A DNA stretch of 64,000 nt, from NCBI GenBank assembly GCA_965112155.1, contig OZ218114.1. The stretch is one strand, 5' to 3'. This document shows positions 27,331 to 33,200 of this stretch, one piece after another. A program made the translations under genes and the position numbers. The notes below the pieces were generated by a model. It searched no databases. It was not told the origin of the DNA and saw only the letters and a program-made list of their open reading frames with translations. Origin of the DNA: Podarcis liolepis (lineage: Eukaryota). Each line of letters opens with the position of its first letter. Position 1 is the first letter of the stretch.

Positions 27331-30263
27331 CTTGAGGAGAAGCTGAAGGGGGCCATAAATAAAATATAATAATAAAGAAACATAAAAATAAAAGAGTGCT
27401 GACTTTCTCCCCTTGGCCAGCGACTTCCACAGAGGAATGGTCACCAAGGCAACAGCCTCCCTGTCCCTCCTGTCAAAAACAAAACCCCAACTGAAGGCAT
27501 CAAGCACCACACTAAACAAGGCCCTGCCTTCATGCTAGGAGTATTTAAAGTTTAGGAAAAAACATCAAACACGCCCTTTTATATAGTGGGGGCTTAACAT
27601 GAGACAGGATTCCACACTAAAAAGAGGTTCAGGGACAAGAAAAAAAATCACACAAAATATGGTGGTCATCAGATGTTGTTGGACTGTCTTTGGGCTTAAG
27701 CCATTTGGGCTTAAAAGAATAGGGGCCTAACACCTGCAGGGCACCAGACTTGACTACCCAAGCTCTAGAATGCATCCACCAATATGGCGGGGAAGGAAGC
27801 AAGCAAGAGGGAAGAAAAAATGCACTTAGGCACCATGGCCAATTCTCACTGCCTACACAGAAGGCCTGGATGGGTTAGGGATTACCAAACAGGCAGCCCC
27901 TCACCTTTTAGAAATCCATCACTGCAGCAGGTAGTAGGTGGCACTTTAGGATCCATCTGTTTGAGAGGGTAGCCAGTGTAGGCTCCACCAATTTTCATTC
28001 TTCCATTTAAAAAGAGTGATTTTTTTTTTTAGAAAAGCAAGTTATTTTATTGAAACCATTTTCAAAAGGAGCAAATACATTTCAACTGAATGACTTAAAA
28101 TGTGATCACCACCCGCTTTCTCCTGTCCTCCCTCCAGAAAAAAAAGTTAACAGAACTGACCAACGAGCACCTGAACATTGATGTAAAACAAACAACCCCA
28201 GACTCCACAGCTAAATAAGTGCCAATATGGCAGAGGGAACTTGCACAATTTCTGCAGAGCACACAAAGGTGGCAGCATAAGGTACTCTCTTGCCTACTGG
28301 CTTTCTGGATTAGGCTTAGTTGGGTTTTAGGCAGCAGCAGAGGAATGGAAGAGGGAACATTCCTCCTTCACTCCCAAATTACATTCCCATGACAGAGAAA
28401 TTAAAACTTCTAAGCCTGCCCTGTTCAAAAGGGGGAAATTTTTAAGAAAAGACAGACACAGCACAAGACAAATTCAGGGAAATGTTTTTCAGGAAACCAA
28501 GATTTACATTCAAATTCCAATTACTTTATCAATGCTCACAGTAGAATGCACATTCTGCTCAAAACAGGTATGCAAAAACAGTTGCTTTGTTTTTAATAAG
28601 GTTTTAAACTCCATTTTCATCAAAATCCAAATATTCAATGCACATTTTAACAGAGGCAAAAACACCTGTGTGTGTGTATATATATACACAAAACTGGGAA
28701 AGATGGCAAGCTTAACTTCCAAGCACAAGTATAAAGCTTGTTGAAATTAAGAGGAAAGGGGGCATTACAATAGGCAGCACACAATTTAGTATTAATTTCT
28801 CACATTTGCCTTGTTCTAGGAGCCTGTAGCATTTGGCATACCACTTCTGCCTGAATACTAGAGAAATAATTCCTCAAAGCTGCAAGTTAAGACAAAGACG
28901 TCTTGAAATTAATTCAAGAGAAGAACACATTTCCAAATTGATTTTAGGGACTAGGAGGCAGTGCTTAGGAATGAGTTGCTGAGCAATGATGTTAAAGAAA
29001 ACAGGGTCTCAGCATGGTCTACATATGATATTCCTTTGAACAGTTTGGACGTTGTGTGTAGAGGGGAAAACTGAAGTAAAAACGGCTGGATGAAGTTTTT
29101 CCTCTACTTTGTGACATCTTTACATATTCTAGTTTATGTGCAGTTGGACTGATTTGTACTTCTGAAAACTGAAGTATCACAATTATTTGTCCTATAGCCA
29201 AAGCTGTCCCTACTACACTACTAGGTGGCCAAAGTGGAAAGTTCAGCTGCCAGTAGGGTGACTGAGCTAGTAAATAAAAGGTGCACACACACAAAAATGT
29301 GCATTCACCACCCAAGACAGCAAGCTTTGTAAGCCAGCTTCCCAAATCACCATATAACATCAGCAGTATTAGGAAATGGCAAGACTAAGAACAGTGCCCA
29401 GTGTTGCTGGGAAGGCAATTAGAAAGCAAATCTACAAACTTGAGGAGCAAATAAAATAGGTAAAGAAAACCTGTACCTTTCTGGGATAGATCAGACTTCC
29501 TGCTTTATTACAACAGCATAGTTTCATGGGCCTCTTAGAAAATGACTGGCATTAGGGAGTTTTGCTAAAGGCAGTAACTGATAATAAGAATCAGGGATGC
29601 GTGTCTCATCAGTGGCCATCCCTGCTATGCTACAGCTGTCTGATAAATACTTCTGAAAGCAGAGTCGTATAGTTATCTGTTTGAGCATTTTGGTTTTCCT
29701 TCCATGCATTGTCAACTTCTTTTACTCTCCACTCCTGTTTCATCCATTTCAGTTGCACAGACACCCCCAAAAGAGAAAACTGTCCATCAACAGCCAAGAG
29801 TAAGAATATAAAGGGACTTGCTCATTCAAACCTAGTTGATGAACCATAACATGATGAGGCTGAAGCAGAAGGTTCCAATTTGATATTTCCAGTTGCAGAC
29901 AAATAATGTTTCCAGAAGGTGAAGCATAGCCCAAAAAACTGCTGATGCCAACTGTCATTTCCTAGAACAGTTTCAGGTAGATTTAAATCTACTGGTTAGA
30001 AGTGCAATTCAGGGGACAGTGCTGTGGAAAACACAGCAAGAGTGCCCAGTGAGCTCAAAGTCATTTTTAAAGAAAGGAAGAGACAAGACAACACACCAAA
30101 ATCAGCAACAAATAAATCCCCAACAGAAAGAAAAAAAAATGTACAGCTCTATTGCATTTTGTTGTCAGTCTGTGCCATGTTCCACTAACCAGGTCCATCA
30201 TAAAAACAATGGAGTTAACTGTAAATAAATAGGTGTTGGTGCAAGGGGGGGTTTAAGGAACTG

Positions 30264-33200
30264 TTATAATTCATCATTGGTTCTGGTGTCTTCCCTTGTT
30301 TCCGACCTCTTGTCAGTTTGTGGCCCTGAAAAGAGCAAGAGCAGAAAAACCGTAATGAATCAAAACTGTGCAGCATGGACAACAACTTTCCAAATCAAGA
30401 TAGTACCAGGGAAACATGTTCAGATACACAAAGAGTAAGAAAAATTTCTGCAACAGCAACAGGGTAGCAGGGTTAGAAAGCAAGAGCAGGCAGATAAAGC
30501 CATGGCTTGAGACTCAAACGTATTAGCGGATGGAAGAGCATTTAGAATTGAAAAGTAAAGGGTTGCTACCTCTACAAATCCCAACCCTAACCCTCGACGG
30601 TTCCAAAGGAATTTAGTTCTTCAAGATTCCCAGTGCCAACCCTTGTGCAGTGCAGGGATGAGGTAAATAGGAAGTAAGAAAAGGGTAATTGGGGAAAAAA
30701 ATACATTGCCATCCTTGAGATGCATGCTGCATAAAAATTCAATCTGTTTTGTGGCACTTTAAACCCACACATTTGTGCCACTTAAATTCCCTAGAGAAAT
30801 TGGAGTTCTTGTTGACACTGCACTGAAAAGGATATATCAAGAACTCTGGCCAAAAGTTTCAATATAAGGAATAATTCCTACTCAAGCGTTAAAATGAAAA
30901 ACGTGTATATTCTGCTAAGAATAACAGTTTGAAGCTAGTGATAAGTTTAAACACAACGTGTAAGTACAATGGTTTTAAAGTAATAGTAAGTTTGGATACA
31001 ACGTTTAAGTACAGAAATAATGTAGTTTCAAATATACAGTGATATAGTACAAGGGTACATGAAATACCAGTGCACAACAATTGTTTTATACAAGTCTCAA
31101 TAGTAGTCAAAAAGAGTCCACATTATATAAAATCAGAATAAAGAATAAAGAGTAAAGGATCAAATAGGGCCAAAAAGGAGTATCCGAAGTGTGAATCAGA
31201 TGTACGACTCAGTAGTAGTAACCAGGACAGGGCCCTGTTTCGGAGACACGCCTTCTTCAGCTTGGTTTTTTTGACGACTATAAATCTGTTGGAAGTCTGT
31301 ATCATTTAATTCTTTTATGTTTCTTTTTCGACATGCGTCTTAGATAATTGCATCCAAGTTTTCTTGCGTTTCTCTGTGCGTTTTGTACTATATCACTGTA
31401 TATTTGAAACTACATTATTTCTGTACTTAAACGTTGTATCCAAACTTACTATTACTTTAAAACCATTGTACTTACACGTTGTGTTTAAACTTATCACTAG
31501 CTTTAAACTGTTATTCTTAGCAGAATATACACGTTTTTCATTTTAACTCTTGAGTAGGAATTATTCCTTATATTGAAACTTTTGGCCAGAGTTCTTGATA
31601 TATCCTTTTCAGTACTTAAATTCCCTACACATGCTCTTGAGGCCCCTTCCTCCATCAGGACTGTTGAGATCACTTGGGGAGGAGCTTTTGCCAGGAGCAC
31701 CCTTCCCCTGGGTTGGCAGGGCAAGGAGGAGAGAGCAAGCCTTGTCTGGGAATAGCTCATCCCTCTGTATTACTGTCTTTTCTCCTCCCTCCCTGAATGT
31801 TGGAAATGCTCTTGGTGCCCCTTGAGCAACACAGTGCCCAGTGTCTTTTCTGAAAGCAGCCACGTCTCCCCCTGTCTTGCAGCCAATTCCCAGGGTGGCA
31901 TGGAGTTTCCCAGCATCAACTGTATGAATTGACTACGGCTATTAAAATAGTAATTTGGATAACTTGTTTCCTTACATTGTTTCACATTGTGAATTTGAGG
32001 CCCACAATAGCATGGCTCCAGAATAAAAGGTTCCTGAATTCCCACTATGATGTGGAGAACCCAAGAAAAAGCAATCACATGGCCTAGGGAACTCCAATGC
32101 TCTCAGCCCAATATTTCCTTATCAGAGTTCTGCTCAGTGATCGAAATAAATCGATTCATTCCTTACCAGAGTCTGGTCCCAATTCATCATCCAGTGGTGC
32201 TTTTTCTTCTATGGGTGGTTCTTTGACTGGGCTAGCATCTTCTGGTTTATCTGGTTGGAAGGAGAAAAAAAGGTATCCATAGTTGCAGAGGTATGTGCAA
32301 TGACCAAACTGGATGCACACCACATCACCCAAGAGAAATTTCATGGAGCAACCAACCAAAGGCTAGAAGAGGCAGCAAAGACTGAGGACCCTCTTTTACA
32401 CCAAGCAGTCTTCCACAGGGCTAGTTTCAAACACCAGGGAATATGAAGAGGGGAATTAGAAGACTACTGATGCTGCTGTGAGACCATCTCACCTTTTTGA
32501 TTCTCATCCTTGGGAGGAATGACTTTTTCACCCTCAGGAGGCACAGTGGTGTTCTTGCCCGCTTCTGTTTTTGTGGTGTTCTTCTTGGGGGGCCTGATCT
32601 TTGAAAACTTGGCTTTGTTGAGGAGGTATTGCACTTCCCTGTCCAGAGCTGCAATCTTCAGCTCAATGTCTTTGGAAAGCAGAATAGGCTTCTCGGCGGG
32701 TGACAGCTTGGTCTGTTCTGCCAGGGTCTCATTCTTCCACAACTAAAACAAACAAACCCAGGAAAACATATTATCCTTAGGCTCCACCTGATAAGACCAG
32801 CCTTGTTTGGTGCTGTTCATTACCAAGTGCCAATGGCCTTCTGACCTGACACAACTCCACTACTCAGTGCATAATCACTGCTTAAAAGCTCCATCTGGCC
32901 TCTGCTGAGCCCTATTTCTACAACCATCCATTCATTCGTTCATACCCCCCCACTCCATAAAGTGAGCACAAGTTGTGGGCTTACTGTATTTTGGCAGGAT
33001 TCTTAGGTTTACCTGTGAACTGAATCACAACATTCTAAGTAAAAAGAACAAAAAGGGTATCTTTTGGAGCCTAGAGCAGAAGGGACAAGACGTGCACATC
33101 CATGAACGCACATAGTTTGGATACTGAAAAGATTTTCTGCACTCCTTGCGACCCTTCTTACCGTTGTCTCGTTGATAACTTTTTCCAAGGTGCTTAGCTC

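Follow-up and report, generated by a model that had tools for sequence, protein, structure and literature searches.

A Penelope-like insertion in the last HYOU1 intron of Podarcis liolepis, probably copied from a spliced 5' leader

The stretch of Podarcis liolepis DNA analysed here (the window, 64,000 nucleotides of contig OZ218114.1, assembly GCA_965112155.1) carries an 820-nt insert in the last intron of the gene HYOU1. The insert is a piece of a Penelope-like element (PLE) without an open reading frame (ORF), and its family has endonuclease-bearing full-length partners in the genome. The spliced 5' leader of an apparently Neptune-type PLE messenger RNA was likely the template from which it was copied by reverse transcription, and the two ends of a staggered 14-nt cut likely served as primers. 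Two GT..AG segments are precisely absent from the insert and from about two dozen other copies, and both are kept in all ORF-bearing copies examined. The layout of the insert, with an inverted pseudo long terminal repeat (pLTR), one tail and a target-site duplication (TSD), has already been published, and the precise absence of the two segments is what is new.

The TSD, ACTTAAATTCCCTA, stands at 30780-30793 and 31614-31627 with 14/14 positions identical; with 60x60 offsets allowed for, a 14-bp repeat in this position would still arise by chance with a probability of about 3e-5. Between the two copies lie 820 nt (30794-31613, 32% GC) with two inverted arms of 231 nt each (30822-31052 and 31383-31613), which differ at 30887 and 30931 (99.1% identity), and 28 extra nt (30794-30821) occur on one side only. 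No stop-to-stop frame longer than 78 aa is found inside the 820-nt insert. The HYOU1 exons map by tblastn to the minus strand, and the last intron (30326-32166, GT..AG) contains the insert; over 90% of the query, one exon is 100% identical to a named HYOU1 protein of a lacertid, and the last exon (30267-30325) ends TNDEL-stop as that protein does. The original prediction, made from the letters alone, had described the exact duplication, the AT-rich insert with its near-identical arms and one-sided extension, the host intron, and the lack of a reverse transcriptase (RT) or GIY-YIG frame, and each of these descriptions holds. Beyond the features it listed, two intron-like segments are precisely deleted, and the spacer between the arms has a hammerhead motif. 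The features of the insert and its surroundings are as follows.

30780..30793, no strand: TSD, left copy, 14 bp, exact repeat
30794..30821, minus: PLE tail, 28 nt, matching the leader just past the 5' pLTR and upstream of the ORF1 ATG in the full-length copy L053
30822..31052, minus: pLTR 3' end in the long arm, terminating in a pyrimidine tract and AG (30832-30823)
30794..31260, minus: putative leader exon 3, from hammerhead core to tail, by comparison with the full-length pLTR
31220..31269, minus: type-I hammerhead-like motif, identified by eye against the published consensus
31261..31338, minus: putative leader exon 2, 78 nt; a 119-122-nt GT..AG segment is absent between 31261 and 31260
31339..31384, minus: putative leader exon 1, 46 nt, from the putative transcription start; an 80-82-nt GT..AG segment is absent between 31339 and 31338
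31383..31384, no strand: 2-nt microhomology (TT) at the head-to-head junction, where the arms overlap
31383..31613, plus: inverted, 5'-truncated, tail-less pLTR arm, 231 nt, reverse complement of part of the long arm
31614..31627, no strand: TSD, right copy, exact repeat
30326..32166, minus: last HYOU1 intron (host context), by protein mapping and GT..AG

A search of the insert against the host genome (G000) gave 124 matches among the 40 scored out of 140 candidates, and a 21-nt motif from the pLTR end has 134 exact matches there, with 0 for the control. Longer relatives of the insert run into a broken GIY-YIG frame, and following these led to full-length copies. One of them, L053, is ordered as pLTR, tail, ORF1, a 746-aa RT/finger/GIY-YIG frame, pLTR and tail. 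Its 746-aa frame scores above the Pfam cut-offs for both RVT_1 (E=4.6e-8) and GIY-YIG (E=1.3e-4), with a CxxCxxC finger (CGSCNVC) between the RT and GIY-YIG domains. Identity between the insert unit (31384 to 30794, minus strand) and the L053 pLTR is about 94%, and the 28-nt extension is the L053 leader between the 5' pLTR and the ORF1 ATG. The PLE origin that had been proposed from a pLTR with a 3' extension and an inverted partial pLTR is thus borne out; a search for genome copies adjoining an RT and GIY-YIG frame, as had been suggested, found L053, and the family is linked to these domains instead of a DNA transposase or DIRS recombinase.

Family loci include partial-tandem pLTRs and inverted 5'-truncated copies, and most members are either one-armed or carry inverted arms whose length varies (about 30 to 315 nt). 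The smallest member seen, L126 (G000:C1:87796950-87797400), is a 59-nt two-armed insertion with a 14-bp TSD. Family copies crowd on G000:C20 (21-30 Mb and 0.1-12 Mb), where several share flanks (L006/L007/L085; L014/L015/L017/L018), which on this repeat-rich chromosome points to later segmental duplication. In L053 (6545-6590), and at the same place in L051, L052, L055, L057 and L064, the overlap between ORF1 and the RT frame falls on an identical GGGTTTT run, which we take, by the slippery-site rule, to be a candidate -1 frameshift site. The proteins closest to the partner RT are unnamed lizard, amphibian and fish RT/GIY-YIG ORFs. A CX2-5CxxC finger between RT and GIY-YIG marks Neptune or Nematis (PMC8557442), and the partner shares with the Neptune clade (PMC8557442; two-ORF killifish Neptune, PMC12602865) both a CxxCxxC before GIY-YIG and a separate upstream ORF1. 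The family therefore appears to be of Neptune type, a placement drawn from the finger motif and not from an RT tree.

Compared with L053, the insert lacks exactly two such segments, one of 81 nt (GTGAGA...TTCTAG) and one of 119 nt (GTATGG...TACCAG). The two segments are GT..AG in 23/23 and 28/28 distinct intron-bearing sequences, including a subfamily that is 87% identical. Exact junction patterns occur genome-wide in 25 spliced and 47 unspliced cases (reversed controls 0), and both junctions agree in 32 distinct contexts, 21 of them spliced at both, 11 unspliced at both and 0 mixed. In a 58-row tree of the 430 nt in common, which has duplicate rows for some loci, the spliced and unspliced states are intermixed, with 12 changes, at least 5 of them forced by well-supported branches; such interleaving indicates that segment loss recurred. 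A single origin of the spliced state appears in 0% of 200 bootstrap trees.

The spliced copies also share a starting point, since 24/24 begin at reference positions 244-269. Among the unspliced copies, 14/19 extend farther upstream and 5/19 start at 243-267; this comparison of 24 with 19 is biased toward long unspliced copies, and its p = 1.5e-7 is overstated because the unspliced loci were partly picked through their ORF. We take the cluster of starts to mark where transcription begins, about 46 nt ahead of intron 1. None of the 29 spliced contexts reaches ORF1, and the pLTR at the 3' end is unspliced in all ORF-bearing copies examined. The best reading of the spliced genomic copies is that they are dead-end retrocopies of a spliced 5' leader. 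Three further candidates were set aside: a third intron with the pLTR-end AG as its acceptor (that stretch is missing from no copy among the mapped loci), alternative splicing in L070 (better read as a microhomology jump) and ADAR-type editing of the template (there is no A>G excess).

These observations suggest the following course of events. Transcription of a full-length copy would begin within its 5' pLTR, about 46 nt ahead of intron 1, and two introns would be spliced out, as the precise junctions indicate; the second splice would fall at the hammerhead core's first base and so exchange the 5' strand of helix I. On the model of the anole element (PMC11167929), the RT/GIY-YIG protein would then cut both DNA strands about 14 nt apart, and cDNA synthesis would start at two internal RNA positions, about 30 nt from each other and just upstream of ORF1. 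At one target end, copying would have run from tail to cap (591 nt), while at the other it would have begun at the end of the pLTR and broken off after 231 nt. The two cDNAs would be joined head to head at the 2-nt microhomology, and gap filling would have made the TSD. Because copying would start upstream of ORF1 and run 5'-ward, a spliced leader could give only ORF-less stubs; ORF-bearing copies would take their pLTR from the 3' end.

The ends of other insertions bear on how the two arms arose. An exact TSD of at least 10 bp is present in 29/52 loci and absent in 23/52; after four of the 29 calls were dropped (L007 as a duplicate; L021, L070 and L113 as doubtful), 22/25 sites have a TSD of 14-17 bp. 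L127 was dropped as a duplicate of L122. All 15/15 two-armed insertions with a TSD have one end at reference positions 1000-1012 and the other at 1023-1042, i.e. exactly one tail. The same pattern occurs in 3/5 held-out two-armed sites, the exceptions being L123 (no tail) and L126 (59 nt, at most a partial tail), which brings the total to 18/20, and two tails occur in 0/20. These data fit initiation on both cut strands, at two neighbouring sites of the RNA, better than fold-back copying, in which the inverted arm would be made from the same spliced template by self-priming or repair copying of the first cDNA. Fold-back copying would account for arms that are 99.1% identical with source-specific alleles in common, for the 2-nt microhomology at the insert junction and for the same internal deletion in both arms of L068, and self-priming has been proposed for PLEs (PMC3846280). 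It is nevertheless an unlikely origin of the inverted arm. In at least six insertions (L009, L013, L023, L101, L109 and L115) the tail is on the short arm and the long arm has none, so that the long arm did not serve as template for the short one; in L070 and L073 a deletion affects just one of the arms, and in vitro the anole protein extends both strands, starting at two neighbouring sites on the RNA (PMC11167929).

The other alternatives concern the nature of the unit itself. It could be a self-propagating non-autonomous subfamily, similar to a short interspersed element or a retrozyme, in which a single master lost both segments by microhomology deletion; the uniform length of about 560-590 nt, the defined 5' end and the AG microhomology at both junctions are compatible with this. 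Such an origin is largely refuted and very improbable, since the tree gives no support for a single origin, both losses are exact GT..AG units that always occur together, no head-to-tail tandem of the short unit is present among the mapped loci, and intron-bearing copies begin at the same site. Although inverted arms and a TSD might also be expected of a miniature inverted-repeat or other DNA transposon, or of a DIRS derivative that has terminal inverted repeats, in L053 the sequence runs on into RT and GIY-YIG ORFs, not into a transposase or recombinase, and family members are one-armed or have arms of any length in the range given above, by which this origin is refuted. An assembly artefact of the inversion or of the whole insert is scarcely credible: a filled site was seen in none of the related DNA runs examined, but the insert has an exact TSD of family length, a one-sided tail, two arm differences and a clean junction, and about 20 other sites follow the same grammar.

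Splicing of a leader of this kind would also affect a putative ribozyme. The second acceptor AG abuts a hammerhead core, CUGAAGA (31260-31254), followed by GAAA, a 12-nt palindromic helix III and GUC, with a predicted cut after 31226. The motif fits the dimer-type PLE hammerheads (PMC4209133). Splicing of the second segment swaps the 5' strand of helix I, which in the insert comes from exon 2; the helix I duplex energies are -5.6 kcal/mol unspliced and -4.7 and -5.4 kcal/mol spliced, differences so small that no direction of a switch can be claimed. The hammerhead cut was rejected as the usual 5' end of copies (only 1 exact match genome-wide), and a ribozyme-cut deletion in L068 is better read as a microhomology jump. 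Among 32 internal 5' break points at reference positions 575-960, three lie at the predicted cut, 608-609, in L121 (about 1521), L123 (445) and L051 (5172), and none lies at 575-607 or 610-648; the L121 junction came from a targeted search, and the other two are incidental (about 0.16 expected). The three junctions are a weak hint of hammerhead cleavage in vivo. Directly before the predicted ribozyme 3' product in L123 (282-444), inside a TSD-flanked insertion, there is about 160 nt of GC-rich host sequence that is 98% identical to one other place (G000:C16:42934375-42934533) and has no Pfam match; a template jump onto host RNA is a possible explanation.

Several observations weigh against copying of a spliced Neptune-type leader from both cut ends. 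Besides the motif-based placement, the duplicate tree rows, the biased start comparison and the two held-out exceptions already mentioned, several alleles common to both arms of the insert differ from the clade majority, a pattern equally compatible with one arm having been copied from the other. Each of the two splice-like junctions has a 2-nt AG microhomology, which makes deletion formally possible. No splice joint was seen on the L053 5' pLTR in RNA of related organisms, where 5-15 records per run are too few for a verdict. An Rfam scan of 30700-31700 returned no hammerhead family and one chance miRNA match, and the unconstrained minimum-energy fold of the motif is not a hammerhead (z = +1.1).

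The original prediction had taken the near-identity of the arms as a sign of a recent event. Arm identity fails as a clock, because the divergence of the insert (2/231, 0.87%) is no lower than the family mean (12/2017 columns over 11 insertions, 0.6%). Only 3/434 positions are private to the insert copy, and its long tree branch (0.031) consists mostly of alleles shared with other subfamilies. Recency itself receives support from the related runs X1, X3, X4 and X13. In the DNA read comparison, which covered 29700-31380 (left flank and long arm), a single-depth contig from each of these runs tracks the left flank exactly to 30793 and then continues unaligned for 22 (X1), about 1040 (X3), about 4740 (X4) and about 1015 nt (X13); the 22 nt of X1 are below the bridging length of the method. 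Within the 1094 letters of flank, the contigs show 2, 7, 6 and 18 differences, respectively. The empty orthologous site that had been suggested as a check is thus apparent in 4/4 related runs, judged from contigs that leave the alignment at 30793, the letters beyond the TSD being outside the comparison. As these contigs appear to lack the insert, the insertion is probably recent and probably postdates the split from very close relatives.

As a passenger in HYOU1 the insert is most likely dead and near-neutral; it brings to the last intron a candidate splice acceptor and a hairpin of 231 bp predicted in the RNA. The right junction (31607-31620, pLTR end and TSD start) matches an internal 14-mer of the element (31418-31431) at 13/14 positions, which may reflect chance or target-RNA microhomology.

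The insert can be compared with known systems as far as the available text of each source allows. Endonuclease-positive PLE insertions, including rotifer Pen2a_Av, comprise a direct pLTR, an inverted 5'-truncated pLTR, a tail and a TSD (PMC3846280; PMC8557442). The insert is alike in its direct and adjacent inverted 5'-truncated pLTRs, a tail of 28-40 nt at one end and a TSD, whereas the TSD is 14-17 bp in the family here and 8-10 bp in the rotifer (PMC3846280), and the insert has no ORF. It is also intron-less, while intron retention is given as a PLE hallmark (PMC3846280; PMC8557442). The two leader introns go unmentioned in the available accounts of Neptune (PMC8557442; PMC12602865). In Drosophila virilis Penelope, the intron lies 46 bp after the start site (PMC2377424), its end maps to hammerhead helix I (PMC4209133), and most transcripts are spliced (PMC2377424; PMC4209133). 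The family described here is alike in the putative spacing of about 46 nt, the intron end at helix I and the distinct spliced and unspliced forms of the putative ribozyme, but it has two introns in place of one, and the spliced form found there in RNA is here integrated in DNA. In Anolis carolinensis Poseidon (PAc), two adjacent internal RT start sites define the tail, and both target strands are extended in vitro (PMC11167929); these priming sites are 111-118 nt inside the ORF, whereas the 3' ends here are about 10 and about 40 nt upstream of the ORF1 ATG. Non-LTR retrozymes (bioRxiv 10.64898/2026.07.22.740005) are similarly short, ORF-less, pLTR-derived and equipped with a type-I hammerhead. 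The insert, however, has a single hammerhead and head-to-head arms in place of their head-to-tail tandem, and it appears to be a dead-end by-product, not a replicating unit.

No report of spliced or intron-less genomic PLE copies was found in the literature searched; older subscription papers (Arkhipova 2003, 2006; Evgen'ev and Arkhipova 2005), Repbase and supplements may hold precedents. In the available text, the significance of PLE intron retention is described as unknown (PMC8557442), and both an antisense template (PMC3846280) and selection against intron-less copies (PMC2377424) have been proposed. Dozens of precisely intron-less leader copies beside intron-bearing full-length copies make the cause of intron retention testable: an antisense template cannot give spliced copies. 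A broader proposal, which we consider evenly balanced, is that PLEs integrate spliced sense messenger RNA, that priming just upstream of ORF1 makes every spliced template an ORF-less stub, that the starting point of copying, and not an antisense or nuclear-only template, would account for the introns kept by full-length PLEs, and that splicing of intron 2 would switch a hammerhead that cleaves in vivo. The family insertions record a cut geometry (14-17 bp) and two priming sites that match the in vitro data from the anole element. If true, copying from a spliced message would help explain why full-length Penelope elements retain their introns.
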